Positions 20,387 to 41,368 of a DNA stretch of 64,000 bases are shown here, piece by piece. Location: the NCBI GenBank assembly GCA_018818785.1, contig JAHIRF010000002.1:135874-199873 (forward strand), given 5' to 3'. Source of the DNA: Thermoplasmatota archaeon (GTDB taxonomy: Archaea > Thermoplasmatota > Thermoplasmata > UBA10834). The translations under genes and the position numbers were made by a program. How positions within the stretch are numbered: the stretch's first letter is position 1; each line of letters starts with the position of its first letter. Under the pieces are notes generated by a model. That model was not told where the DNA came from and made no database searches. It saw nothing but the letters and a program-made list of their open reading frames with translations.

Positions 20387-20430
20387 CGAAAGTTAGAAAT
20401 ATCTCTCGTCAGCTCCCCAGCTAGCATACG

Positions 20431-20502
20431 GGCCCTTAGATCAGTGGAAGATCGCTTCCTTCGCAAGGAAGAGGTCGTGGGTTCAAATCCCACAGGGTCC
20501 AT
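20431..20502 (+). tRNA. tRNA-Ala (anticodon CGC)
   Basis: 72-nt cloverleaf. Acceptor GGGCCCT/AGGGTCC with G3:U70, anticodon loop TTCGCAA, T-arm GTGGG-TTCAAAT-CCCAC. No encoded CCA. Confidence 0.85.
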
Positions 20503-20538
20503 TCTAAGCCTGACTGGCCAATTTTCAATCAGCCGGAA

Positions 20539-21696
20539 TTGATTTCTCCCCTGTCCCAACAAACTCCTTCATCTTCTTTCTCTTCCGAAGCCTCCCGGGA
20601 CCATGAAGATTATCGAATCTTTCAGTATGTCAACGACTTCGAGGAGGTCAGGCTCAAGCTAGTAAAGGGCAAATTAGACCTGAACCTGCCTGAGGACCGG
20701 GATCTATGCATAAAACTCTATCAGAAATGGGTCACAGACGACAATTACATGGTTCTGAGAAAAATCGACCCTCGTGGACCAATCGAGTATCAGGTATGCA
20801 AGGCTCGCAAGCGTGGAAACGATGTAGACGCATACAGGATCCATCGACAGCTTCGCATCATAAAGGACTCAATCGTCGAATATGCTCAAAGCAATCAACG
20901 CCTGAGGGCTACTAGGGCCGTCCATGTGACGGGCACGATTGACCCTAGATTGGTCGATAATGATCTCGAATACGCTTGGCAGTACCTTGGATACTGGTTC
21001 AATATGTTCCTGGCAAGCCTGAGAAAGCGATGTGTCAGAAACATCACGCTCAAGGAAGAGAAGGAAAAAGCCAAGGAACTCAAGATTCGAGTATATCGGT
21101 CCTGGGAGTCCCATGGATCGGGATGGCCCCATTTCCATGCTATTCTATGTTTTGAGGGATACTCCTGGACAATCTTCCAAGATTCAAAGTCGAGGTGGCG
21201 ACTCAATGACAAGGACACATTCCAAGATGCTTGGAGCTTCGGATGGATAGATGTAGTAGCCCTCACCCCTGGCACGACTAACAAGAATGTCGAGAAGGTC
21301 GTATCGTATGTCAGCAAGTATGTGGGCAAAGGGGCCACTGAGATGGATTATCGTCATGTGGAATCCTGGCCTCGAAAGAGACTCCTGACCGAATCGCTTT
21401 TATGGTACTTTGGCAAAAGGTCATATTCGATCAGTCGTGGGCTATTGGAGGGACATGACCACCCTAACGACTTGAAAAAACGTATAAGCACAATTCAAAC
21501 GAACATAGAAGGAGAATGCGTCCCAGAGCTTGAAATTGTGTGGGAATTCATTGGAATGGTGCGCGGAAAAGACACCGAATTGGATGGCTACACCTGGGTC
21601 AAGACGTATACGGATCCACCTGATTGGCTAGACCTATGCTGGAAACCTTGTCGTAGCTACGTGGGAACATGTTGGATGAATACTTGGGGGAGTTGA
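20539..21696 (+). CDS. rep: Rolling-circle replication initiator (HUH superfamily Rep)
   Basis: Motif 1-like 'AVHVTGTI', HUH motif 'WPHFHAILCF', Tyr motif 'VSYVSKYVGK'. First gene after the tRNA att site. Confidence 0.6.
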   Translation: MISPLSQQTPSSSFSSEASRDHEDYRIFQYVNDFEEVRLKLVKGKLDLNLPEDRDLCIKLYQKWVTDDNYMVLRKIDPRGPIEYQVCKARKRGNDVDAYRIHRQLRIIKDSIVEYAQSNQRLRATRAVHVTGTIDPRLVDNDLEYAWQYLGYWFNMFLASLRKRCVRNITLKEEKEKAKELKIRVYRSWESHGSGWPHFHAILCFEGYSWTIFQDSKSRWRLNDKDTFQDAWSFGWIDVVALTPGTTNKNVEKVVSYVSKYVGKGATEMDYRHVESWPRKRLLTESLLWYFGKRSYSISRGLLEGHDHPNDLKKRISTIQTNIEGECVPELEIVWEFIGMVRGKDTELDGYTWVKTYTDPPDWLDLCWKPCRSYVGTCWMNTWGS

Positions 21697-21697
21697 G

Positions 21698-21907
21698 ATG
21701 TTCGTTTGCGACGGATGTCAACATGAATTCGATTTTCTAATGATTATCTGTGGCCTAGCGTTGTGCAATGAATGTCTTAAACCGTACGATGACGCATTAT
21801 CGGAATGTCAATCGCATAAAGAATTGGACATTGTGGGTCGACGGATACGTTCGGATATTCTGTCTTTTCGAAAAGGGGAGAGAGTCAATAAGTGTTTTAG
21901 AGAGTAG
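21698..21907 (+). CDS. Small zinc-finger protein (element cargo)
   Basis: 69 aa, 'CDGCQHEF...CGLALCNEC' Cys4-type pattern. Confidence 0.35.
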   Translation: MFVCDGCQHEFDFLMIICGLALCNECLKPYDDALSECQSHKELDIVGRRIRSDILSFRKGERVNKCFRE

Positions 21908-21926
21908 TGGTCGGAGGTCGTCAGTC

Positions 21927-22787
21927 TCATGATTCGTTATGCTTTTCGCAAGTGATAGTTCTTGTATTGATTTCCTTGAGCAGTTCTTTGACTCCAGGCA
22001 ATTTCGTCAGAGAGCGTTGCCATCGGTCGAATGATTCAGTATAGAATTCAATGACAAAACCTTCGGAGAAGACAAGCAAAGTACGGTCTGGACGATTGAG
22101 GAATGCGAGTTCTAGATTCTTAGGCTTGATCTCGTCTTCGAATTTCCACTCGTACTTTTGATTCTTGCTTACCCTTTTGTCCTTGCGGTTGATGAATTCG
22201 TCGATTTCGAAGGTGAGATTATCTGGATCTTCTTGATTCAGTAGCGGCATTATTGCGTCTCTCAATGGTCCGCTTTTCAGAACCATGGCTTTTCTATGCT
22301 TCGGAGGGTGGATGAATCGAGATAAGGATTTCTTGAAGTAGAGATTCATTCTTTCCATGTCTTTCTTGTTATTGACTGATGTGATCTTTGGCGGAGGAGA
22401 ACCCGGCCTCGAAAGGAGAATCATGAAAGAGTTCAGAAACTCTTCAATCGTGATGAGTCTGTAATATTTATGAGCTTTTTCTCGGTCTGGTTCTCTTTCG
22501 TCAGTGAGGTGGGGTTCGAATCCAAGCGACTTCTGAACCAGACCCAGATGGACAGATGGGTCAATACTTGCGTGTGCCTTCACAATTGTTTCGTATTCGT
22601 TGATTTGTTTTGATACAATTTTGAGAATTGCGATTCCTTCAGCTGAAATCGTCATCTTCTTCTTGATGTGCTTCTTGCTCATCCTTTCGGAATAATATTG
22701 CTTTGATATAAAGCGTGAGAGGTATGGATCGAATGCTGTTGCTTGTGAGGATAGAATAATGCCTTTAGGCTGCCGAAACCGAATCAA
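21927..22787 (-). CDS. Hypothetical protein (element cargo), AT-rich codon usage
   Basis: 286-aa ORF, K/E-rich, no motif recognized. Confidence 0.35.
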   Translation of the reverse strand: MIRFRQPKGIILSSQATAFDPYLSRFISKQYYSERMSKKHIKKKMTISAEGIAILKIVSKQINEYETIVKAHASIDPSVHLGLVQKSLGFEPHLTDEREPDREKAHKYYRLITIEEFLNSFMILLSRPGSPPPKITSVNNKKDMERMNLYFKKSLSRFIHPPKHRKAMVLKSGPLRDAIMPLLNQEDPDNLTFEIDEFINRKDKRVSKNQKYEWKFEDEIKPKNLELAFLNRPDRTLLVFSEGFVIEFYTESFDRWQRSLTKLPGVKELLKEINTRTITCEKHNES

Positions 22788-22977
22788 GAGGGGGTATGAG
22801 CGCAGTTGCGTTAGAGGCGTTCTAGAGGGGGCTTGGAAGAGGTCAGATGAAGAGGGAGGGAACAGAAGAAGACTGGTAATGAGAGTTGGCTCTTAGCCTG
22901 GTGGCAGGACTGAATGGGGATTCCCCGGAAGCCTTTATGTAGCGAGTTGACGGTCAGAGAAGACAAGGGGTGGAATT

Positions 22978-23268
22978 GTGAATAGCAGTGAACCCGATTC
23001 AGATCAGGGAGAACCAACCTGGTTCAAGACATGGTGGGAGAGGGAGGAGAAACGTCGCTCGAGACGCGAGCTGACTGAAGGCGGTTTTGGCATATTCACC
23101 ATCGGTCTCGGAGGCATCGCAGTCGGTCTGGGATTGGCCGCACTTGAGGACGCCAATACTGTGGCGGTTGCCCAAGTCCTCTTGGTCAGCATGTTCGCCA
23201 TGATTGTGGGGATGGTGATAGCTATGGCCAGTCTGTTCGGTTACAGGCGGAAAAGGGGTCCCAAATGA
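22978..23268 (+). CDS. Small membrane protein (element cargo)
   Basis: 96 aa, 2 TM after a charged N-terminus. Confidence 0.35.
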   Translation: MNSSEPDSDQGEPTWFKTWWEREEKRRSRRELTEGGFGIFTIGLGGIAVGLGLAALEDANTVAVAQVLLVSMFAMIVGMVIAMASLFGYRRKRGPK

Positions 23269-23435
23269 CGAATTTTCTGGAGGGACTTGTTGGCTTATCT
23301 GTTGGTTTGGTGCTTTCCGCGATTATAGCAAATGCTCTATGGACGATACAGCCAATTGGTACAGTGCTGATTGGTGTCATAGATGTCGTGGCCGTCGTCG
23401 CATACGTCAAGGGATTGGCGGGTGGCAGAGGATAG
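23265..23435 (+). CDS. 56-aa two-TM peptide. Its ATG overlaps the stop of the 22978..23268 gene (ATGA).
   Basis: Direct translation gives 'MTNFLEGLVGLSVGLVLSAIIANALWTIQPIGTVLIGVIDVVAVVAYVKGLAGGRG'. Below the ORF-track length threshold. Confidence 0.3.
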   Translation: MTNFLEGLVGLSVGLVLSAIIANALWTIQPIGTVLIGVIDVVAVVAYVKGLAGGRG

Positions 23436-23493
23436 AGTCCGGTTCTAATCTGACTGGGAGAAGACCATAGAGTGGAAATGTGCCACTCGAGCA

Positions 23494-24045
23494 TTAGTAG
23501 AGTTTGCCTCGCTCATATCTGAACGAAGCGTGCTCATGCTTCTTGTCTCGTAACACTGATCTGAACAGGCTAGGGTACTCGATTTCCTCAAGAGGTAGGC
23601 AATAGACTTCGTCTGGCATTGACGGCTCTCCCCCTAGGCCCAGAACCATAAACACAGTCTCTGGACATACTCCCTTCTGAAAGCTGCGATACGCTTCCAG
23701 GCGGTCCTGTTCACATATCTTGAACTTGTCATCATAGAGTCTGGCTCTCCATTTCGCTTCGACCCAGAACTTGTCCCTGCTCCTTCGGTCCTTTATGTAG
23801 AGGTCCGGCTTTCTGCTGCCTTCGGGATCATCCCTCTGCTTGATTTCGAAATCGCGATTCGGAAACATGTTTTCCACGAACGCTTCGAAATCCTTGCCTT
23901 TCGCATACTGGACAGGATCATAGTTTCGCTTCAATTGAACCAATCCCGGACATTGATGACAAGGAGACCAGATAGTTGTTTCGGAAGGTCCCGCCTGGGT
24001 CTCCAGGCTTTTTTGCTCAGAAAAGCCCAGAGAGAGGAGACACAA
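23494..24045 (-). CDS. PD-(D/E)xK nuclease-fold protein (restriction-endonuclease-like / NERD-like)
   Basis: 'RKPDLYIKD...KFWVEAKWR' gives D...(D)-x(n)-E-x-K spacing. 183 aa. Confidence 0.45.
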   Translation of the reverse strand: MCLLSLGFSEQKSLETQAGPSETTIWSPCHQCPGLVQLKRNYDPVQYAKGKDFEAFVENMFPNRDFEIKQRDDPEGSRKPDLYIKDRRSRDKFWVEAKWRARLYDDKFKICEQDRLEAYRSFQKGVCPETVFMVLGLGGEPSMPDEVYCLPLEEIEYPSLFRSVLRDKKHEHASFRYERGKLY

Positions 24046-24133
24046 TCAGGATTACGTTGTCTGCGTACCTCAATCCAAAAAGCATAATTCTCATTGATTA
24101 CCAGCCAAGCACCCGTATTCTGAGGGGAGATGC

Positions 24134-25159
24134 TTGGCTTATGGTGGCAAAGGAACTAATCGGAGTATGACAATTAGGTGCCTATATGTTGGTTTGCCAA
24201 CAGGGAGGTTGACAGATACGGAGAGCGAATCGGAGACTAGAAGTCACAACAAGAAGGTTGATAGCATCAACAAATCAGGCTATGGTTTCCAGAGAAAGAT
24301 TGCACTTGAGATCTCTAGCACCGAGAAATGGGATGTTGAGATTGAGAAGCCCCTCGTAAGATTCGAAGAAAGGTCGGTGGAAGAGGTCAAGGTTGACATC
24401 TTAGCTCGCTCCAGACGGAAGTTCAGCGATATGCCTAGAGCAGTTTCTGTGATTGAATGCAAGAGACATGATCCCAAGTATTCAGAATGGCTCTTCTTCT
24501 CTCGAGGCAGCAATCTTGGAGAGATTGAAGGTCGAGAGAAATTCCCATCAGTTTGGTGTCACCTCACCGGTGGCAGTTATTCCTTCGATAACAAACATCA
24601 CAAGACGGGTAGAATGGGGATGTACGAGGGTTATTTCCCAAGTCTGGCTGAATGGGCTGATATCAAATACAGTGATTCTTTTGGGGTTCCGACGAGGCGC
24701 GATGGTACGATTGGTGCCGCAGACTCAGGAGTGATTCAGCATGCTGCTAACCAGGTGGCTCGGGGAGTGCTCGGCGCTGTTCATAGCCTCCACGAATACC
24801 GAAACTCGCGGAGGAAAGAGCGATTTCTTCCTCTTACGGGGAATCATCTAGTCCTTCCAGTCCTTGTCACAACTGCTCCAATTTACGTGTGCCATGTTGA
24901 TGATGCAGCCACGGACTTACTGCAGGGCAGTATTCCTCCCGACGGTCTAGAGACTGAATCGAAGAAGTGTCTGCTATTCAGATATTCGCTCCCTATAGGT
25001 CTTTGGTTCCCACCTGATACGCTCGCAGGAGACGGATTGCCGGACCTGACGTCACTCTCCGTATGGGTAGTCAGTTCATCATTCTGCAAAGAGTTCTTTT
25101 CGCTCGTTGACAAAGACGCTGCTCATTGGCAAGAAATGGCTCCGATTCAGGGACAGTGA
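24134..25159 (+). CDS. Putative PD-(D/E)xK-like nuclease / hypothetical protein (element cargo)
   Basis: 'VKVDILARSRRKFSDMPRAVSVIECKRHD' is a candidate D...E-x-K motif. 341 aa. Transcribed divergently from the 23494..24045 gene. Confidence 0.35.
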   Translation: MAYGGKGTNRSMTIRCLYVGLPTGRLTDTESESETRSHNKKVDSINKSGYGFQRKIALEISSTEKWDVEIEKPLVRFEERSVEEVKVDILARSRRKFSDMPRAVSVIECKRHDPKYSEWLFFSRGSNLGEIEGREKFPSVWCHLTGGSYSFDNKHHKTGRMGMYEGYFPSLAEWADIKYSDSFGVPTRRDGTIGAADSGVIQHAANQVARGVLGAVHSLHEYRNSRRKERFLPLTGNHLVLPVLVTTAPIYVCHVDDAATDLLQGSIPPDGLETESKKCLLFRYSLPIGLWFPPDTLAGDGLPDLTSLSVWVVSSSFCKEFFSLVDKDAAHWQEMAPIQGQ

Positions 25160-25171
25160 TACAGGAAGAAT

Positions 25172-26500
25172 TCATTCTTCTGAAATGATGTCTCTGAAGT
25201 CCTCGAATGTCTCTGGATAGAAGACCTCGATGTCACACGGGATTTCAGAGAATTCCTTTAATGACAGAATATTGTCGACGACGGATGCTCCAACGCACTG
25301 GGGGATATTCGTTACAAGGTATGCGCTGCTAACGTGAATATCGGCCTTGTCATAGGTCCTCCAATGATTGGAAAGCTGGTTGAGATCTTCACGGATTTGC
25401 GATTCCAGGGTTCGTCCAGGTGAGTCGAGATGGTGAACCTTAGATTCGACGATTCCAATTTCGTTCTCATCCTCCATTTGAAATACCGCGTCCTTCTCGG
25501 TGTCATCGGCCAGTCCTTCCACATATACACCAGGTGCCCAGCTGCGGCCGCTTTCTCGGAGGCTCCAGTGTACCGTGGTGCCCAGCAAACCGTCGCGGGC
25601 ATCCAGCAATTTGGCAAGTGGCGATTTTGGGTAGTAGAATGTACCCACAGCCATTTCGGACTTGCAGACTGGGCAGGTCGAGACCGGAGGGTCCTGGCTA
25701 GCTACCGCAAAGTACGATTGAGGATGTTTCCTGCATTGAGTGCACCAAACTAGCGATGTCGCCGGGGACAAGAGACAGAAGCGGTCGGCAAGCTGTTTTA
25801 GTGTGCGGTGATATTCTTCATAGCTCTGTCTGGAGGACACAAGGAGATTTTCTAGGTGCTTCCGGCCGAATTGCAGCGCACCATATTTCCATATTGAAAA
25901 AATGCTAGCTAGGGCAGGAACCACCAAATCTCCGGCTCTGCTCGTGATTGTGTTTACGACTTTTCTTAGCCCATCTTCACTGTACATCTGAATGATTCTG
26001 TTTGTTACCTCTCTGGTGACGATCTCCGTCCTGATCTCTTCCTCTCGTTCAGTTTCAAGTGATGGAAGCTTCGCGGTCGTTTCCTGAAACTGCTCTTCAA
26101 AACCCGCGAGAATATCAGGTAGGATTGGAAGAAACCTATTCAAGGCGTCGTATACATGGACTCGGAGCTCGGCGTCAGACTTGCTTGCTTCGTAGGCCAA
26201 TGGATCGTGGTCACGGAAGGGCATGCTTTCATCATAAAAGATGGGGAGAACAACTCCCTTGAATGGCATGTAGTCATGCCTGTGGCGCCAGAGAAACTTG
26301 CGAATGTCCTCCTCCGTCGCGACCGCGTCAAAAAGCTGTGTAAGTTCTGGGACCGATTGAATGGTCTTCAACGAATTCAGCTGGTCTGAATCACACTTCA
26401 GCTTCCTTTTGGAGCCGTCCCTGAGGGTGACCGTTTCAAGAATGTTCATTAGGTCATGGTCATCGATTTTCACAGCCCTCGGATGGGGTCTACATGCCAT
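25172..26500 (-). CDS. Large hypothetical protein with an internal zinc ribbon (element cargo)
   Basis: 442 aa, 'CTQCRKHPQ...CPVCKSE' zinc ribbon, no other recognizable domain. Confidence 0.35.
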   Translation of the reverse strand: MACRPHPRAVKIDDHDLMNILETVTLRDGSKRKLKCDSDQLNSLKTIQSVPELTQLFDAVATEEDIRKFLWRHRHDYMPFKGVVLPIFYDESMPFRDHDPLAYEASKSDAELRVHVYDALNRFLPILPDILAGFEEQFQETTAKLPSLETEREEEIRTEIVTREVTNRIIQMYSEDGLRKVVNTITSRAGDLVVPALASIFSIWKYGALQFGRKHLENLLVSSRQSYEEYHRTLKQLADRFCLLSPATSLVWCTQCRKHPQSYFAVASQDPPVSTCPVCKSEMAVGTFYYPKSPLAKLLDARDGLLGTTVHWSLRESGRSWAPGVYVEGLADDTEKDAVFQMEDENEIGIVESKVHHLDSPGRTLESQIREDLNQLSNHWRTYDKADIHVSSAYLVTNIPQCVGASVVDNILSLKEFSEIPCDIEVFYPETFEDFRDIISEE

Positions 26501-26682
26501 AAACCTTCAGGTCCGGTATTAGGTCTACTACAGACTATAGACTGTAGAAAGTAGTCAGTTATCTTACTGGCCTTGGGGCGAACCGCAAGATACAAATGCA
26601 CGAAGTCTGTTAAGATTTATGGATCGTGTAACCTGGAATTTTGGCTTTGGTCTGATTCCTTTCGCGGCCTAGTGGCCCTCTG

Positions 26683-27987
26683 TTGTATTTAATTTTGATA
26701 TTGTTGATCCAGCCAGCACGACTAGGTTGCGAAAGATTGATCAACAAAGGAGACGAAGAATCGTCGTGGGCGGGCAGTTGGCGCTTGAGAGAAAACGTTA
26801 ACTCCCTAGATAGTGATGTAACGAGCGGTCCTGAGGATGGGACAACTCAGGACCGCAAGGGATACAATGAACCCGGTCGTGAACCCAGATCGGGGCAGGG
26901 GAGACGGAAGAGCTCGACGCATAGAAGAAGGAAGCCAGGAAGGGAGCGTGGTCCGAGGTCAAATGGCCCTTATCCGTTCCTGACTGAGCTTAAGGTCTAT
27001 CTGAAGGACGTGGAGCATGCACATGCGGAATCCACACTGACAGACATGGCAAGGAAGCTGCGGCATATCCATGATGTTCTCAAGGAGCTGAAATCGAAGG
27101 GACTTGTACAGACTACAAGTCCCCGAAAGATGGGAGAACAAGAGATCTTTGCATTTGTTGCATGGATGAACGCCAAGGATGGCCTGCGTTCAAGGCCTTT
27201 GGGCGAAGCCACTCAGAAGAAGACGCTTCACCAGTTGAAGAGCTTCCTGGCGCATCTCGACAATGGCGTAATCGACAGAATGCTGAAGAAGAAGCAGCTG
27301 AGGATGCCGCGAGAACGGAATGTTCCTCGTGAATCGTTTGAGGCGGATGAGCTTGCCCAGATTATGACGAGTCTCAAAGAGGCGGCTGCCAAGGGGTCAA
27401 TGAATGCCTTCGGCGTGTTTGGCCATGCTCTGTTCTGCGGATATGCGGGCACGAGACTCAAGGAGGTCAGGCTAGCTCAGAGAGGCGACTACTTGGCCAA
27501 GTTCTATGAATTGACCGTGCTTCATCCAAAGGGCGAGAAGTCCTGGGGAGATCCACGAATAGCACAAATCTGCCCTCCTGGGAGGCCGTTCGCCGACGAT
27601 TTCATGGCTATGCGCGACCGAGAGCTAAGGAAGTCCGACATCCTTGACAGCAAGGCGATCCCATTGGTGCCTAGAGTCATAGGAGGCAGAGTCGAACGCT
27701 GGCCAGATTCGGTCCTTCATAACGTGAAGTGCGAGGTCGAGCGTGACCGTATGCTGCAGTTCGACTTTCGCAAGCTGAGAAGAACTTACGGCCAGAACGC
27801 TTTAGATGCCGGTACGCCAATGGACTTCGTGAGTGGAGCTCTAGGTCACGCACACGTGGCGACGACTCAAAGGTCCTACGTCCGTCTGAAAAGCAGTAGA
27901 GTCTTTGCGGAGATAGACCGTGCCTATGCGAATGCGTCTGTAAATTCAATCCCCGTTGATTGCGATAAGGCCAGGTGTTCGAAATGA
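26683..27987 (+). CDS. int: Tyrosine recombinase / phage-type integrase. The true start is probably internal, near 27046; the first ~120 codons of the ORF are low-complexity.
   Basis: Catalytic region 'FRKLRRTYGQNALDAGTPMDFVSGALGHAHVATTQRSYVRL' shows the R...HxxR...Y pattern. Confidence 0.72.
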   Translation: MYLILILLIQPARLGCERLINKGDEESSWAGSWRLRENVNSLDSDVTSGPEDGTTQDRKGYNEPGREPRSGQGRRKSSTHRRRKPGRERGPRSNGPYPFLTELKVYLKDVEHAHAESTLTDMARKLRHIHDVLKELKSKGLVQTTSPRKMGEQEIFAFVAWMNAKDGLRSRPLGEATQKKTLHQLKSFLAHLDNGVIDRMLKKKQLRMPRERNVPRESFEADELAQIMTSLKEAAAKGSMNAFGVFGHALFCGYAGTRLKEVRLAQRGDYLAKFYELTVLHPKGEKSWGDPRIAQICPPGRPFADDFMAMRDRELRKSDILDSKAIPLVPRVIGGRVERWPDSVLHNVKCEVERDRMLQFDFRKLRRTYGQNALDAGTPMDFVSGALGHAHVATTQRSYVRLKSSRVFAEIDRAYANASVNSIPVDCDKARCSK

Positions 27988-28367
27988 GGAGCCACAGGGT
28001 CCACCATCCATGAGAAAAGGACATAAGGGCGGACTACCAGGGAAAGATTCTTGTGCTGAAGAGAACGATTGCAGCAAGGGAGTCGACTTGAATTCTGATT
28101 CAGAGAGACCCGTCAAGGCCAATGCTCCTGTCCGAATTCCCCGGATACTGCTCATGATTGGCAGTATTGGGGTGATCCGAGGGGTTCTAGCATGCATCAG
28201 GCGTGTAGGAAGAAGAAAAGGAGTTTAGCTCCGGGCCAATTCCCCGCTGATTGAATCCGAGTCCTGACATACTGGCTCCTCAGGGATTCAAATCCCCTTC
28301 AGTTTGAATCCTGATGTAAGGGGCCGTAGACACGGAATAGGAATCTTCAAGCCATGAACAGCGATTT

Positions 28368-28868
28368 ATGGTTGAGGAAATGGCGCTTAGATTGAGCAGA
28401 TCGATTAGACAATTCGGCCTGATAGCTGCAGTGGTGGGCGTAGTGGCCATTCTTGCATTTGCAGCCTATGTTCTTGTCTTCTCGACCATTACGGTGTCCG
28501 GCGTGGTGGACCACAAGACGATTGTTGGAATAAGGGACGACTGTCAGTACACCCTTGTGGTCATCGTTCCCTGGGGCATACAGGTCCAGGATTCAGCCCT
28601 TCAGAGTCTCTTCTCTGATAAGGATGTCAATTTGACGATTGACGAGTCATTGGAGTGGGATATCAGGTCTTGCGGATATGCAGAGATACGCTACCTAGCT
28701 AGCGTGAGATTGTCAACGGGAGACTCGGTCAATGATATTGAACCAGGAGGAACTCTCGCCTACTTCGTTAAGAGAGATGACTTCAACAAACTAGGATTCA
28801 TTGATAACCACACAATCAGTGTAGAGAAGTTCGAATTCGCCACCATCAGAGATGTGGACAAGGGTTGA
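28368..28868 (+). CDS. N-terminally membrane-anchored protein (element cargo)
   Basis: 166 aa, with one TM ('FGLIAAVVGVVAILAFAAYVLVF') followed by a soluble domain. Confidence 0.35.
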   Translation: MVEEMALRLSRSIRQFGLIAAVVGVVAILAFAAYVLVFSTITVSGVVDHKTIVGIRDDCQYTLVVIVPWGIQVQDSALQSLFSDKDVNLTIDESLEWDIRSCGYAEIRYLASVRLSTGDSVNDIEPGGTLAYFVKRDDFNKLGFIDNHTISVEKFEFATIRDVDKG

Positions 28869-28925
28869 ACGCCTTCTGATGTGCAGTTACGATGAATCCT
28901 GTGTAGAATGATGGAAGGGGTTTGG

Positions 28926-29055
28926 TGAGGGGCAACGATCCCCTCCTAAAATGACCAAAGCGTTTGCTATCTCTCAACGCGTCTCCTCGGCGAAGGTGCC
29001 CTAACAAGGGCATTTTGGACTATGAGCCAGTCATCTTCGTGGTCCATCATCCCAA
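28926..29055 (+). repeat. Copy 1 of a ~130-nt imperfect direct repeat. It contains two hairpins and ends in a degenerate copy of the tRNA 3' end.
   Basis: 'gaggggcaacgatcccctc' and 'gccctaacaagggc' palindromes. About 85% identical to 29692..29830. Confidence 0.6.
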
Positions 29056-29141
29056 TGAGTCGATGAGAAGAAGCCATAAGAGCGGAATGCCTGAGTAAAC
29101 TAGATAACAATCCATGTCCATCAACATATAGAGGACTGGCG

Positions 29142-29534
29142 ATGAGGTGTCCGCATTGTGCATTTGAGAGTCCACCAGATAACAATTACTGCGGCCGCTG
29201 TGGAGGAAAACTGGGAGCGATGAGTCCTAACTCAAACGTGCCTGAATGGTTGCGTGACGAAGGGAGAGGTGTTGGAGGAAGCCTATATCCTGAGGCGTCC
29301 TTCATCGACCCTGCTTCGTGGAGCATTGCCCAGAAGAAGAGATGGACAGCATTGGGTGGCATTGCGATGGCATTCATGGTTACATTCATTCTGGCGATAG
29401 CGTTCACGACCACTGACGCATTCACACGAGACCTCTTCTTAATCATGGCCCTTGTCCTTGCGTTCGTATTTGGGTCGATGATTGCTGCCCGCTGCTACAG
29501 AATGTCTATCCGCAAGAAGGAACTCGAGCAATGA
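29142..29534 (+). CDS. Zinc-ribbon + 2-TM small protein
   Basis: 'CPHCAFESPPDNNYCGRCGG' N-terminal ribbon, C-terminal hydrophobic helices, 130 aa. Confidence 0.45.
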   Translation: MRCPHCAFESPPDNNYCGRCGGKLGAMSPNSNVPEWLRDEGRGVGGSLYPEASFIDPASWSIAQKKRWTALGGIAMAFMVTFILAIAFTTTDAFTRDLFLIMALVLAFVFGSMIAARCYRMSIRKKELEQ

Positions 29535-29691
29535 ACCGTCACTGGTGCAAAATGTATGCATGAACCGATTCGGAGAACTCGGATGCGAACATCAATTTTA
29601 TGAGATTCATTGATTGCTATGATGATTCATTGCGATTAGATCGTGGGTGTACCTGTTGAAGGGTCATGAGCTGAGGATGTTGAAGAGGTTT

Positions 29692-29830
29692 AGTGAAGGG
29701 TAATTAACCCCTCTAAAAAGAACAACGGGTTTGCTACCTCTCAATCCGCTTCCTCGGCGAAGATGCCCTAACAAGGGCATTTCGGGGTGTGAGCCAGTCA
29801 TCTTGATGGTCCCTAATCCCACAGGGTCCA
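29692..29830 (+). repeat. Copy 2 of the ~130-nt repeat. It ends with the exact 16-nt tRNA-Ala 3' end (attR, 29815..29830).
   Basis: 'AATCCCACAGGGTCCA' is identical to 20487..20502. Confidence 0.7.
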
Positions 29831-29880
29831 CCAATTCTGAGAAAAGGCCAAAGGGGGGCAAATAGAGGCTTCCCCAGCAA

Positions 29881-30123
29881 ATGATATATGTTCACGATTC
29901 AGTGGCAATCATCATGCAATGCATGCAATGCGGTGCCTCCAATCCGGAAAATGCCAAATCCTGTCAACTTTGCATGAACTCTTTGGAGATAGAAGATTAC
30001 AAAGATCCAGCATTCTACGCAGAGTCACCTTCTTGGAACTCATATGGCAACATCATACTCATACTGGGGCTGCTGTTCACGGCATTCTTCTTGGTGTCGA
30101 TGCTCCTTGTATTCTTCTTTTGA
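29881..30123 (+). CDS. Zinc-ribbon + TM small protein
   Basis: 'CMQCGASNPENAKSCQLC' followed by one TM. 80 aa. Confidence 0.4.
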   Translation: MIYVHDSVAIIMQCMQCGASNPENAKSCQLCMNSLEIEDYKDPAFYAESPSWNSYGNIILILGLLFTAFFLVSMLLVFFF

Positions 30124-30223
30124 CGGAAGAAGAGAATGAGTTCGAGCTGAGTTTTCGCATGTCTTCCAAAGATGCTGGGGTAAGAAAATGTGATAGAGGC
30201 GGAAGAGCTGACTGTGGAAATGG

Positions 30224-31270
30224 CTACTCAGAATTACTCTTCAGGCGCCATATCTTACGATCTCCTGGCGCGCCATACTGAAAGTAGTGAAAGAGAATCA
30301 CTGAGGTAAGCATGATCAGCTGACCTATCACGCACAGATACCATCCAAGCTGAAGCTTTGCAGCGAATACAGCGCCAACAGTCATAGTTCTGTACTCCCC
30401 GAACACCAGTCCCCAAAACAGAGTCAATGCAAGAGTGACGATCAGTAGGTCCTGAGCGAACTGCAAGATAACCAGACCACTCATCTTGCGGACGAACAAG
30501 CACAGAATGACCAGCGCAGTGGACAGGACTGCTATAACAAGCACAAGGTATACCAGTGGTGAGACTTCGGACCCGTTGTTGGAATAAGGACTCTGACCGT
30601 ACAAGCTTGATGCGGACCCGGAGTTCCAGGCCAGGAAGAATCCCGCCACTGTAATGGCACATCCAAAGACGATGATGGGAATGGATACCCAGAAGAGAGA
30701 TGCTGTGTGGGATTTCGCGGGTGACAGTCTAATCGAATTGCGATTTCCGTCATTTGACTTACAGGCTTCATGATACATGCCCAGTGTTAGCAGGCACGCG
30801 GCCGAACCAGAAAACAACGCAATGAACCACCCAATCACCATTTCGTCAAGTGCAGACCAGAGAACAGATAGATCTGCCGACCCAATTGGCCAAGGCAATT
30901 CCCAGTGGACATAGAGCAATGGTCCCGCCAGGGCCAAGCTGTTCAACATCGACGAGGCACGAAGGGCTACGGTATGCTCCCTCTTCTTGGCGATGGCGAA
31001 CATAGAGAGGAGAAGGGAGATGATTGCGGCCGTAAAGCATATAAAGAGTGCGATCGCCGTGTAGAAAGTAAGACCACTTGAAGGACCGTCCATAAGACTC
31101 GGATACAGCAATTCAAGCGGTCCAGCATAAGAGATACTCGCATAGATCCGCTCCCAGGGAAGGAAATATGCGACTATTACGAGAACCTGAGCGAGCGCTA
31201 GACAATAGCGAAGCCAGAATGCCTTTGCCTTAACCGTACCCTTCAACGATGCTCGCTTCCACCCAGACAT
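30224..31270 (-). CDS. Polytopic membrane protein (about 9 TM), function unknown
   Basis: 348 aa, hydrophobic throughout. Confidence 0.45.
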   Translation of the reverse strand: MSGWKRASLKGTVKAKAFWLRYCLALAQVLVIVAYFLPWERIYASISYAGPLELLYPSLMDGPSSGLTFYTAIALFICFTAAIISLLLSMFAIAKKREHTVALRASSMLNSLALAGPLLYVHWELPWPIGSADLSVLWSALDEMVIGWFIALFSGSAACLLTLGMYHEACKSNDGNRNSIRLSPAKSHTASLFWVSIPIIVFGCAITVAGFFLAWNSGSASSLYGQSPYSNNGSEVSPLVYLVLVIAVLSTALVILCLFVRKMSGLVILQFAQDLLIVTLALTLFWGLVFGEYRTMTVGAVFAAKLQLGWYLCVIGQLIMLTSVILFHYFQYGAPGDRKIWRLKSNSE

Positions 31271-31371
31271 CCATTTAAATCATGCTTTTGCGCTATATTA
31301 ATATCACTCGGATAGACAAGGATTGTAGCTGGAATGCAGATTCGCATATACCGTGGGAAAGGCCATAGGAC

Positions 31372-31836
31372 CTATTTCTTCTGAGGCGCGCCACAAAACG
31401 GGCACTTGCTTGACGTGACCTCTATCAAGGCGTTGCAGTATGGGCATGGATACTTGACAATCTCCCTGACCACTTCCTTCACGATCGTTGGCTGTGAAGA
31501 GTGAGTAGTCTCTGCACTCTGGCTTGCCATTCCGCTCTGAATAGCAGTTATCCACGGTTCAGGCGTATCGACTTGGAATTCATGGCGGGGAATCCCTGAC
31601 ATCTCTGTAGTGTCAACTACTACCACAAGAATCGGCTTCTGAACCATCCCAAGGATCTTGTTCGCCCTCTGGACATTCATTGACTTAATTGCCTTGAGCG
31701 GAATGGATTGGGTAACATAGTCCTTCCGATTTACCAGACCGCTTCGAGTGACGAACTTGAGCTGCCCGTTCTCCAGCTCAAGAACGCCTGGATTGCCCCT
31801 ATACCAAGCTGGCGATGAATAGGACAGCACACTCAC
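31372..31836 (-). CDS. PH/GRAM-like domain protein with a C-terminal zinc ribbon
   Basis: 'VLELENGQLKFVTRSG' bacterial-PH-like N-terminus, 'CPYCNALIEVTSSKCPFCGA' ribbon. Confidence 0.4.
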   Translation of the reverse strand: MSVLSYSSPAWYRGNPGVLELENGQLKFVTRSGLVNRKDYVTQSIPLKAIKSMNVQRANKILGMVQKPILVVVVDTTEMSGIPRHEFQVDTPEPWITAIQSGMASQSAETTHSSQPTIVKEVVREIVKYPCPYCNALIEVTSSKCPFCGAPQKK

Positions 31837-32156
31837 CTATCTGTTCATCGTTCTGCCGCACTGCGGACAAACCGCCTTGGGAGCTGACAGCAATGCCTTG
31901 TGCTTTGGAACGCATCCGAAACAGTAGACCTTCCCAGCGTTCTGTCATCCCTGAGTCTTGCAGATCAATCCCGGTGGCTGCATTAATCCTCCAACCGATT
32001 TCCCACAGTTCACACATATGCCTCGCACCATAACCACTCCGACCTGGCATTTTCCTTTCGGCTCATAAGCCTTCCTGTATTCTCTCTTTAGAAAAGGCCA
32101 TAGAGGCGGATAGGTATTTAGCCAACTGAGGGCTTTCAGCTATCGGGGGATCCAGA

Positions 32157-32720
32157 ATGGCGAAAGCGGCACTTATGATGGGGATTGCAGTCGCTGTTGT
32201 TGCTCTGATTATCGTTTCATTGTCGTGGGCATACTACAGTCCAGAGTATTCGTGGGATGCCTCTATACGGGACAGCGACGGCGATGGTTATCCCGATAAC
32301 ATCGATCCATATCCTGATGACCCTGCGAAGTGGACATCCCCTTCGGTGACTCCTACAACATCAATTGCGCATGTCACCGTATTCAACGGCATCAAGTTCA
32401 TAATTGGCGCAGGCGCTGAGGTGCCTTGGTCAGATGTCACAATCATACTTTCGGATGGGAGCCAACATGAGGCATGGGACAACATCTCGTCATCAGATCT
32501 GGATGACACAATCTATGATTCCCAAAGCTACGGAGATGAATATGTCGGCGAGTTATGCGTCTCTCTCGTCGTCACAGACCTAGACGGTAATGGTCGAATG
32601 GACGAAATGGACTACTTCACCCTGATAGCAGACGAGTTCTCATATGGGCAGACCTACAGCATTTTCTTGGTCTATGATCCCACTGCAGAGGAAATCACTC
32701 GATGCATCTTCACTGGGTAG
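32157..32720 (+). CDS. Membrane-anchored extracellular protein with a thrombospondin-type-3-like Asp-rich calcium-binding repeat
   Basis: N-terminal TM, 'DSDGDGYPDNIDPYPDD'. Confidence 0.4.
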   Translation: MAKAALMMGIAVAVVALIIVSLSWAYYSPEYSWDASIRDSDGDGYPDNIDPYPDDPAKWTSPSVTPTTSIAHVTVFNGIKFIIGAGAEVPWSDVTIILSDGSQHEAWDNISSSDLDDTIYDSQSYGDEYVGELCVSLVVTDLDGNGRMDEMDYFTLIADEFSYGQTYSIFLVYDPTAEEITRCIFTG

Positions 32721-32783
32721 AGGGTCCTTGTACCGAGAAAACGCCATAGAGGCGGAAGGACATGCAGCGAACGGTCGATAGAA

Positions 32784-33158
32784 ATGGCAAAGAAGATGAT
32801 TGTATGCAAGAAATGTGGAGTCAAGAATCCAGACTATGCCTTCCGTTGTGGCTCTTGTGCCTCCACGCTCCGCAGTCCTACTGCCAAGGATTCGCGTGCA
32901 ACTCGAGGAGAACAGACATCAGAGGGCCTAGTCGATTCCGTCGACGGACATATGACCAATGACCGAAAACCGATCTGGCAAACAAGATATCGTAACCGCG
33001 TTGCGTTGAACTTGTTCTTGATCGCCCTTTTCGCATTCATTCTTATCATGGACATATTGTCTGGTGCAAGCGCTCTCAACATTGCTGTTGTGCTGGTGTT
33101 TCTGGCTCTTTCCACCACGCGGTTCCTCCTTACTTGGCGGAGGATCCAACAAGCGTAG
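32784..33158 (+). CDS. Zinc-ribbon + 2-TM small protein
   Basis: 'CKKCGVKNPDYAFRCGSC' ribbon, C-terminal TM helices, 124 aa. Confidence 0.45.
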   Translation: MAKKMIVCKKCGVKNPDYAFRCGSCASTLRSPTAKDSRATRGEQTSEGLVDSVDGHMTNDRKPIWQTRYRNRVALNLFLIALFAFILIMDILSGASALNIAVVLVFLALSTTRFLLTWRRIQQA

Positions 33159-33278
33159 CATCGTTCCTCTGATCCAATCCTATTCAGACGATCATCGACT
33201 AGTTGCTACTCCCGTTGCATAGACCCTGGCGAATGTGTCTGTCCAGAAGGATCTCAGGCATTGGACTCTAGTCTCAGC

Positions 33279-33827
33279 CTATGCAAGCAGGCCAGCGGAC
33301 TTCAGCTCTTCTGTGATCTTGTCGACGGCAGTCTCGGCATCCTCAGGCTTTCGGGCGCCAGTGCAAACAAGTTTCCCGCTGCCGAACAGAAGCATAACTA
33401 CCTTCGGCACGTCGAGACGGTACACGAGTCCGGGGAATTGCTCAGGTTCGTACTCGACCTTCTCAAGACCAAGTGTGATAGCCGTCGCATTGAGGTTGAT
33501 CTTCGCCCCGAGGTTGCTTGTGGCAACGATGTTCTGCACCACGATATCTGGCTCTTTCGTGATCACAACACCAGCAGCTTCTATCTCCTTGACCACCTTG
33601 CCAACAGCAGTCTTGACCTGCTCGAGGCTCTTGGCTCCCGTGCAAACGACCTTTCCGCTCCTGAAAAGCAGCGTCGCCGTCTTAGGTTCTTTGAGCCTGT
33701 ATATCAGACCTGGGAACTGCTCAGGTTCGTATTCCGCACCGTCAAGCGTAATCGCAATCGCCTGAAGATCTAGCTCCACCCCTAGAGATGCTGAGGCGAC
33801 AACGTTCTCTATCTTAATCACTGCCAT
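33279..33827 (-). CDS. tbp: TATA-box binding protein
   Basis: Two direct repeats containing 'NVVASASLGVELDL...YEPEQFPGLIYRL' and 'NIVATSNLGAKINL...YEPEQFPGLVYRL'. Confidence 0.92.
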   Translation of the reverse strand: MAVIKIENVVASASLGVELDLQAIAITLDGAEYEPEQFPGLIYRLKEPKTATLLFRSGKVVCTGAKSLEQVKTAVGKVVKEIEAAGVVITKEPDIVVQNIVATSNLGAKINLNATAITLGLEKVEYEPEQFPGLVYRLDVPKVVMLLFGSGKLVCTGARKPEDAETAVDKITEELKSAGLLA

Positions 33828-41047: not shown

Positions 41048-41368
41048 CGAGTCGCTAGGCTTGACCGGGACGTTCGGCGTGTCCTTATACACCAAAATCG
41101 TCGACAGTGGGGGTGACAGCTGGGGACGTCGTAACCGAACCGGCGCCAGTCCAGAAGCCGACAGTGAGGCCCTGTCCGATGGGGTTGAAGGGGGCTATAT
41201 GCTCCTGCCGGAGGGCGGGGGTGTGTGCCTTTGTCGCGGAGATCGGGTCAGGCCCTGACGGGAGCAGCCTTACCGCGAACTATCAACGCTCACCGGGAAG
41301 CGGGACCGAGGAGGTTTCTGGGTCGCTGGCGCATGGAGAGGCCGGCAACCCCAGTGGCCTAGCACTCC
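41048..41368 (+). ncRNA. Signal recognition particle RNA (7S RNA)
   Basis: Helix-8 core 'GGTCAGGCCCTGACGGGAGCAGCC' matches the universally conserved SRP RNA motif (CAGG-stem-loop-stem-AGCAG). The 5' 'gagtcgctaggc' pairs with the 3' 'gcctagcactcc' (helix 1). Internal long-range complementarity runs 'ctgggg'/'ccccag' and 'ggcgccag'/'ctggcgc'. GC-rich, with a T-rich stretch after the 3' end. No convincing ORF. Confidence 0.55.

Follow-up and report, generated by a model that had tools for sequence, protein, structure and literature searches.

Among the cryptic integrated elements of archaea, NitAQ6f-E2 of Thaumarchaeota is known to carry a rolling-circle replication protein (Rep) (PMC6563490). 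In SNJ2, experiments have shown that an integrase-containing replication operon exists only after the element has been excised and circularised (PMC13107129). Accretion of units at one site is also a known pattern for tyrosine-recombinase elements (PMC6563490; PMC5704250). In this study, a stretch of 64,000 nucleotides (nt) from a Thermoplasmatota archaeon (contig JAHIRF010000002.1, positions 135,874 to 199,873; hereafter the window) was analysed at its tRNA-Ala(CGC) gene, where an initial annotation had placed a single integrated element of about 9.3 kb. The inserted DNA is very probably an accreted array of mobile DNA in this tRNA gene, with a 7.5-kb plasmid-like unit carrying rep and integrase (int) genes (the Rep-Int unit) in the foremost position. 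Coordinates are window positions, and L-numbers denote related loci retrieved for comparison.

The gene for adenylosuccinate lyase (purB), which lies upstream of the tRNA together with genes for SRP54 and an RNA methyltransferase, was used to retrieve 23 loci from metagenome-assembled genomes (MAGs) of Thermoplasmata/Thermoplasmatota. Scanning with ARAGORN placed tRNA-Ala(CGC) directly downstream of purB in 19 of 20 loci. Similarity to the window in blastn ended at 20501 in 12 of the 23 loci and 2–7 nt beyond this point in 7; among the loci with a break at the tRNA end, L008 was 96.5% identical over 6.5 kb. Since similarity stopped at or near 20501 in most of the related loci, the comparison confirmed that the DNA from 20502 onward is foreign DNA at a conserved site. 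Similarity ran on into element DNA in two loci, L022 and L028, and only L022 has a related element at the same purB-linked tRNA. Past the element, similarity resumed at about 32.2–33.3 kb (L010) or about 35.5–36 kb (L011, L017, L025, L029, and L030).

An attempt to refute the insertion by comparison with related genomes failed: the closest relatives, L008, L009, and L010, were found to be without the element genes downstream of the tRNA. The earlier claim of a mobile element integrated site-specifically in the 3′ end of tRNA-Ala(CGC) was borne out. Absence of the element from relatives with 96.5% nt identity in the flank suggests a recent arrival. The GC content was 0.531 in both flanks, 0.489 in 20502–28003, and about 0.49 from there to about 33.3 kb. 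An AT-richer tract had been placed at 21.7–26.5 kb; the unit is indeed poorer in GC than its flanks, but its clearly AT-rich part is limited to 21.5–22.8 kb (GC 0.434).

Different DNA was observed behind the tRNA in L009 (11510–13400), the purB product of which is 97% identical in amino acids (aa). Minus-strand integrase-like fragments showed 29–46% identity to the window integrase, and a serine recombinase (Resolvase, E 1e-40) was also present. The tRNA-Ala(CGC) site is a hot spot for other element types.

The initial annotation had reported an exact 16-nt duplication of the tRNA 3′ end. The 16-mer AATCCCACAGGGTCCA has exactly two copies in the 64 kb, at 20486–20501 and 29815–29830; dinucleotide-preserving shuffles gave a mean of 0.01 matches, and two copies were seen in 0 of 100 shuffles. 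The duplication was upheld, as was the identity of the tRNA (ARAGORN and Rfam), although the coordinates first given for the tRNA and the left copy were one base too high. Three items had been overlooked, namely a third attachment (att) copy at 27992–28006, consisting of the 12-nt CCACAGGGTCCA followed by CCA and lying 5 nt past the integrase stop; a degenerate copy at 29049–29063; and a relic of a tRNA-Ala(UGC)-type arm at 28209–28300. The copy at 27992 is embedded in sequence that aligns with the post-integrase sites of related elements.

The window tRNA is without an encoded CCA, ending in GGGTCCA followed by TTCT, and the CCA turns up after the copies at 27992 and 29815, in the latter case at 29831–29833, directly after the outermost core. 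The closest relatives do encode CCA, the tRNA end in L008 and L009 being GGGTCCACCA. Comparison of these ends showed that integration rebuilt the tRNA from element sequence without an encoded CCA and displaced the old 3′ end with its CCA to 27992–28006. Two older short units lie behind the Rep-Int unit, the outermost of them supplying the 16-nt repeat.

In four related elements (L004, L007, L022, and L041), the first att copy was found about 40–150 nt upstream of rep and the second right after the integrase stop, the place occupied in the window by the copy at 27992. From this shared position we conclude that the self-sufficient (autonomous) unit is predicted to be 20502–28003, 7.5 kb and not 9.3 kb in length; the single element of about 9.3 kb did not hold. 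The last 1.8 kb (28004–29830) is to all appearances an accreted array of short att-bounded units, and the 16-nt repeat first reported is accordingly its outermost att copy. The features are listed in Table 1.

Table 1. Features of the tRNA-Ala(CGC) locus in the window and att sites of four related elements
Feature	Position	Strand	Remarks
tRNA-Ala(CGC), integration target	20430..20501	+	ARAGORN; Rfam tRNA 69 bits
attL core	20486..20501	+	16 nt in common with 29815-29830; last 12 nt (20490-20501) in common with 27992-28003
Left (P′) arm, TTCTAAGCCTGACTGGCCAATTTTCAATCAGCCGGAATTGATTTCTCCCCTGTCCC	20502..20565	+	Near-identical among elements; also in the rep frame
Predicted HUH rolling-circle Rep, 385 aa from TTG	20539..21696	+	Frame open back to 20440 inside the tRNA, no ATG
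Cys-rich (CxxC...CxxC) protein, 69 aa	21698..21907	+	Directly downstream of Rep
Cargo open reading frame (ORF), 286 aa	21927..22787	-	No family; not common to related elements
Cargo ORF, 96 aa	22978..23268	+	Sub-threshold matches to uncharacterised Pfam families only
Cargo ORF, 183 aa	23494..24045	-	D...ExK-like motif
Cargo ORF, 341 aa	24134..25159	+	No family
Cargo ORF, 442 aa	25172..26500	-	Near-orphan
Tyrosine integrase, 434 aa from TTG	26683..27987	+	phrog_1, catalytic residues; conservation starts near residue 49
attR of Rep-Int unit, CCACAGGGTCCA + displaced CCA	27992..28006	+	
Short att-bounded unit 1	28004..29063	+	tRNA-Ala(UGC)-type relic; 166-aa ORF 28368-28868; module 28941-29063 with degenerate core
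Short att-bounded unit 2	29064..29830	+	130-aa zinc-ribbon/membrane ORF 29142-29534; module 29708-29830 with exact 16-nt core
L004 element			Target pseudo-tRNA module + core, no tRNA gene in locus; att 16 nt; second copy right after integrase stop
L007 element			Target pseudo-tRNA 3′ fragment + core, no tRNA gene in locus; att 17 nt, one mismatch; second copy right after integrase stop
L022 element			Target same tRNA-Ala(CGC); att 19 nt; second copy right after integrase stop
L041 element			Target tRNA-Ala(UGC); att 18 nt; second copy right after integrase stop

The P′ arm, about 60 nt after the tRNA, was near-identical among elements whose rep genes are only 66–69% identical, and on this ground it is presumed to be a cis-acting site, either an integrase arm or a replication origin or both. 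One copy was found in the window and one in each related element. In an ORF-by-ORF comparison, the elements had nothing in common but Rep, the 69-aa Cys-rich ORF, which follows rep directly, and an integrase of about 412 aa. Homologues of the 69-aa protein were found in L001, L003, L004, L007, and L022; none was found at the tblastn threshold used in L041, a minimal element of 4.2 kb with three ORFs. More distant relatives (43–45% identity) lie about 135 nt after tRNA-Ile(GAU), and the two 15-nt att copies of L049 are separated by 7.15 kb. Conserved att arms and the three-gene L041 make a possible vector backbone, or a model for an archaeal integration-replication switch.

Relatives of Rep were also found on six contigs of 2.6–9.5 kb with terminal repeats of 99–127 nt, which were read as circles. 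Five of the six encode a recognisable PF23343-type Rep, which in three scored above the Pfam cut-off; the ORFs scanned in these five included no other recognisable replication gene. Of six Rep relatives scanned from the small contigs, three passed the PF23343 threshold and three scored slightly under it. Recognisable cargo on the apparently circular contigs included a DNA methylase or an FAD oxidoreductase. One such contig, L046 (2736 nt, 127-nt terminal repeat), comes from the same sample as L005 and is apparently a circular replicon of about 2.6 kb; its sole recognisable gene encodes a Rep 45% identical to that of the window. A second element type was observed in L003 (9908–20528), after the tRNA in L014, and in L042. 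It has a related Rep and a different, shorter integrase (248 aa), and its att core has the opposite orientation with respect to rep and int, the rep-side arm being a module of about 120 nt.

Modules of this length close both short units of the window, each of which has one small ORF and no recombinase. The modules at 28941–29063 and 29708–29830 are 81% identical and each ends in a pseudo-tRNA 3′ half. They consist of a hairpin followed by a T-run, and the pairing persists where the sequence varies, two compensatory pairs being seen among five sequences. The module also occurs in L003, L004, L022, L042, L043, L049, L077, and L078. It was rejected as a functional or split tRNA: its T-arm is degenerate, and no tRNA was reported by ARAGORN or by an Rfam scan at the gathering threshold.

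The layout is the same in L022, where the Rep-Int unit is followed by units of 0.8 and 0.45 kb, each with an att-like copy at its end, and where the sequence matching the tRNA-downstream DNA of L027 begins only past the third att copy. A stretch within the tRNA-Ile-integrated element of L049, in another context, matches the 0.82-kb unit of L022 at 93% identity, and the similarity starts at the left core. A 93%-identical copy of the 166-aa unit (L077) was located about 380 kb from the tRNA-Ala locus in the genome of L009, a sister genome, adjoining an intron-containing tRNA, a P′-arm relic, and two modules. This tRNA (L077 10617–10717, minus strand; 30-nt intron; Rfam 58 bits) had been missed by ARAGORN; the locus is a further att array, at a different tRNA. 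In L038, two unlike elements stand in tandem. The L022/L049 match, the L077 copy, and the L038 tandem together suggest that the short units are discrete.

The regions 28004–29063 and 29064–29830 are thus att-bounded, without a recombinase and beside an integrase-bearing element, as are the units of L022, and in this they are like cis-mobilisable elements (CIMEs). The short units would be mobilised by the integrase of the neighbour. A two-tier system is conceivable, in which single-gene cassettes (0.45–1 kb), each ending in the hairpin and pseudo-tRNA module of about 120 nt, would draw on the plasmid integrase in trans and accumulate behind tRNA genes, somewhat in the manner of integron cassettes, alongside plasmids with excision-gated rep; we offer this as a tentative and rather doubtful proposal.

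The ORF at 20539–21696 is the predicted HUH rolling-circle replication protein. It passed the PF23343 (REP_ORF2-G2P) cut-off marginally (29.0 bits, cut-off 27.8), and the HUH nuclease fold was recognised. In an alignment of 28 homologues, T131 and T133 of motif I (YVTGT), H198 and H200 of motif II (PHFHAI), and Y257 and K260 of motif III (YxxK) were invariant. The HUH-type Rep of the initial annotation, based on HFHAI and SYVSKYVGK, was thus borne out; of the latter motif Y257 and K260 are invariant, but the second Tyr varies within the family, indicating a single-Tyr type. All homologues came from metagenomes or Thermoplasmatota MAGs. A profile search gave 863, 570, and 95 clusters at E ≤ 1e-3, 1e-10, and 1e-30, respectively; ten clusters of relatives that were looked up bore no names, and their members lay on contigs of 0.6–4.2 kb. 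Matches were absent from INPHARED phages and PLSDB plasmids (tblastn) and from IMG/VR (profile), and the element belongs to no named family, in agreement with the earlier statement that none is obviously matched. A literature search on PF23343 found no paper, and no described relatives of the element family were found in the database and literature searches made.

The integrase matched phrog_1 (E 3.6e-11), and weak profile matches to XerA and IntI4 spanned box II and the Tyr. R258, K283, R366, H389, and Y399 were invariant among four homologues, and the homologue in L004 has a precomputed PF00589 match; a PDB sequence search gave no match. The tyrosine recombinase first proposed was supported, but in the R...HxxR...Y signature assigned to it HxxR did not hold, box II being RKLRR. 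In the integrated state the gene is intact, and its TGA stop (27985–27987) overlaps an ATG (27984–27986).

In the window (27984–27987), L004, L007, and L022, this ATGA overlap joins the integrase TGA to an ATG whose frame continues across the core into rep; in L041, GTGA stands in the same register with a different core sequence. In the rep frame the core codons read S/P-H-R-V-H, and no stop was found in the 36–49 codons after the core in any of nine elements. After the core, the sole in-frame start is the TTG of the invariant GAATTGA; in L041, the stretch from the core to the conserved domain contains no start codon in frame. In the integrated state, the rep frame reaches back into the tRNA without an ATG. 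Given an in-frame ATGA and no chromosomal ATG, rep may get its start and its coupling to int only after excision.

The proposed life cycle would run as follows. Integration is between attP (the att site of the circular element) and the tRNA 3′ end, which have the 12-nt core CCACAGGGTCCA in common. In the chromosomal state rep would be largely silent. The integrase would recombine the 12-nt core and excise the Rep-Int unit as a circle, in which the int stop, att core, P′ arm, and rep would follow one another on one strand; only there would rep gain a start codon and coupling to int, upon which rolling-circle replication would start. Whether rep acquires its start codon and int coupling only on excision is, in our judgement, evenly balanced. 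Three considerations speak against it: the five cases rest on closely similar junction DNA and are not independent, the chance of a frame that is both in register and open is estimated at about 0.13, and the TTG at 20539 is conserved in eight of nine elements and could be the real rep start. If the idea is true, excision-gated replication arose independently with a different Rep superfamily.

The predicted junction is GAAATGAGGAGCCACAGGGTCCATTCTAAGCC for the 7.5-kb circle and GGTCCCTAATCCCACAGGGTCCATTCTAAGCC for the 9.3-kb circle; the predicted empty site is GGTTCAAATCCCACAGGGTCCACCATCCATGAG after loss of the Rep-Int unit and GGTTCAAATCCCACAGGGTCCACCAATTCTGAG after loss of the whole array. Several results count against a mobile Rep-Int unit. 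No excised circle was found, a family-wide attP junction pattern having given 0 matches in JGI metagenome contigs and IMG/VR, which is weak evidence because the source sample apparently lies outside both collections. No truly empty site of the same species was seen either, L008, L009, and L010 carrying other DNA after the tRNA. The integrase scored 24.4 bits with PF00589, below the cut-off of 27.1, and its box II (RKLRR, R363..R366) has Arg363 where His is usual (HxLRH). Folded as single-stranded DNA (ssDNA), the P′ arm formed no significant hairpin (z -0.01 to -1.55), and no origin was found.

A fixed, inert genomic-island remnant that is no longer mobile would fit the missing circle, the att relics and degenerate cores around the unit, the attR core shortened to 12 nt, and the state of L028, where the tRNA is followed by a decayed P′ arm without Rep. 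However, neither Rep nor the integrase is truncated or lacks any of the invariant catalytic residues, the P′ arm is intact, and an identity of 12 nt is expected if attP and attB (the chromosomal site) had only those 12 nt in common. The absence of the element from the closest relatives likewise argues against a long-fixed remnant, and we consider this explanation unlikely.

It may also be supposed that one 9.3-kb element is bounded by the exact 16-nt repeats and that the copy at 27992 is an internal relic. The outer pair does share the longest identity (16 nt versus 12 nt for the inner pair), the layout of L022 is alike, and bacterial composite arrays can excise and move whole (PMC5704250). 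Against this, the second att copy of L007 abuts sequence that also forms the flank of L003, with nothing between, and in L004 and L041 it follows directly on the integrase stop. Short units occur elsewhere (L077 and L078), where the examined stretch yielded no homologue of Rep or the integrase, and the 0.82-kb unit of L022 recurs in another context in L049. In addition, in the 9.3-kb circle the rep frame would be immediately preceded by a TAA and would lack a start codon. We regard a single 9.3-kb element as quite improbable; an exact outer repeat can over-call element size where att copies accrete.

With the 7.5-kb Rep-Int unit taken as the element, a plasmid-like rather than viral nature is favoured by its gene content, because no virion genes were found, only replication and integration genes are common to the elements, and relatives lie on apparently circular contigs. 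Pfam and PHROGs scans gave no structural PHROG match and no virion-type gene, and the provirus proposed at first was not borne out. The provirus of a small archaeal virus (pleolipovirus-like or ssDNA virus) could be envisaged, as archaeal viruses with HUH Reps and with integration in tRNA genes are known, a size of 7.5 kb fits, and most cargo ORFs are without a recognisable family and could hide divergent virion proteins. But a virion module would be expected to be common to the elements, whereas conservation is limited to Rep, the 69-aa ORF, and the integrase; L041 has but three ORFs in 4.2 kb; the apparently circular relatives carry metabolic or methylase cargo; and no relative was found in IMG/VR or INPHARED. 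A provirus is thus very unlikely. A Pleolipoviridae-type provirus in particular was rejected, with no spike, membrane protein, or NTPase match in Pfam or PHROG and no structural genes in common.

A chance repeat in ordinary chromosomal DNA, for which only the shortness of the repeat speaks, is refuted by the 0.01 matches expected, by the loss of synteny at the tRNA end, or a few bases from it, in most related loci, and by the att-Rep...Int-att architecture of five other elements.

Between the Rep/69-aa pair and the integrase lie about 5 kb of cargo, unrelated between elements. The five cargo ORFs gave nothing above threshold in Pfam, PHROGs, PADLOC, or NCBIfam. At least one of the sub-threshold Pfam families matched by the 96-aa ORF is annotated as a membrane protein, and the 442-aa ORF has 4 homologues among 5.8 billion clusters, all unnamed hypothetical proteins. 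Nuclease-like cargo had been proposed; this was not sustained, the sole evidence being a sub-threshold match of the 183-aa ORF to Mrr_cat (E 0.078, 13.5 bits, cut-off 21). A single-sequence AlphaFold2 model of this ORF was unusable (pLDDT 41), and PDB sequence searches with the 183-aa and 341-aa ORFs gave no match.

Defence-type genes adjoin Rep elements in other loci. SMODS and Cap17-like genes, resembling the cyclic oligonucleotide-based antiphage signalling system (CBASS), are present in L002 (1377–5721), and TIR and SIR2 lie beside the Rep element in L004 (1–2460). Further cargo of such surroundings included Fic and an SDH-type protease.

The region behind the array, 29831–33270 (GC 0.496), contains small zinc-ribbon ORFs and unassigned ones (e.g. 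29881–30123) and is not common to related genomes, although L010, L023, and L002 match it in part; the probable right limit of the variable island is about 33.3 kb. A stretch 67% identical to its 154-aa ORF (31372–31836) lies 1.6 kb from a Rep gene in L002. The motif GAAAAGRCCATAGGGGAGG (≤3 mismatches) was found four times in the window against 0.05 expected, at 28014–28032, 29841–29859, 32091–32109, and 32737–32755, with a weaker copy near 30183. All copies are within the variable zone of 28.0–32.8 kb, and three shortly precede small ORFs. In the purB loci, 19 copies were downstream of the tRNA and 7 upstream; 6 of the latter fall at points in L021 and L023 at which similarity to the window is lost, apparently through small insertions. 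The motif resembles a promoter or leader carried along with the small inserted genes. A TATA-binding protein gene (33279–33827) stands at the edge of the variable zone and has a matching position in L010; similarity to L011 and L029 resumes right of it, and it may be a lineage-specific paralogue. An Archaea_SRP RNA (Rfam) at 41053–41364 bore out the archaeal host, and one cargo protein matched, with 100% identity across 98% of its length, an NCBI entry from a 'Candidatus Thermoplasmatota archaeon' MAG.

SSV-type (type I) integrases have attP inside their coding sequence, and integration splits int. The window element is alike in that integration partitions a gene, but int is left whole, with 5 nt between its end and the core, and rep is parted from no more than its first seven codons; an SSV-type element was rejected. 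The pSAM2-type integrative and conjugative elements (ICEs) of actinomycetes are similar in size (about 11 kb), in their use of tRNA genes and a tyrosine integrase, and in rolling-circle replication with a phage-like Rep (PMC2440964). They differ in being bacterial and in having FtsK-like transfer, Kor, and Nudix genes, which are not in the window element. The window Rep matched RepSA (PF20199) at E 0.014 and 15 bits, below the cut-off of 34, and no Tra-like ORF was found, so that this class was also rejected.

SNJ2, a betapleolipovirus with Rep-Arvir, is alike in being a temperate archaeal element in a tRNA gene with an ORF spanning attP (PMC13107129). Its Rep is a Rep_trans-like DUF7845 protein and not HUH, it is a virus with structural genes, and its switch has been demonstrated experimentally, whereas that of the window element would follow from reading frames. 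A rep start gained on excision would parallel the operon restored in SNJ2, though with an unrelated Rep. A Rep-Arvir replicon (DUF7845, PF25227) was rejected, no such Pfam match being found and the fold being HUH instead. The short units recall the CIME arrays of streptococcal ICEs and integrative and mobilisable elements, in which recombinase-less att-flanked units stand in tandem with an integrase-bearing element at a tRNA 3′ end (PMC5704250); those described here are archaeal, much smaller (0.45–1 kb, one ORF), and all contain the hairpin module of about 120 nt.

The archaeal cryptic integrated elements and integrative plasmids (PMC6563490) are likewise small, with a tyrosine integrase, often a tRNA gene as the site, and short att repeats. 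They have a replication protein and otherwise unknown genes, no virion or conjugation genes, and arrays from re-use of one site. NitAQ6f-E2 differs in its SNJ1 RepA-like Rep and its host phylum, the Rep here being PF23343-type. The kind of element is thus known and the family undescribed, and an uncharacterised family of integrative rolling-circle replicons is added to the mobilome of uncultured Thermoplasmatota. This family is set apart from the archaeal integrative plasmids by an attP exactly at the junction of the int stop and rep start and by the accompanying single-gene units with a conserved pseudo-tRNA module.

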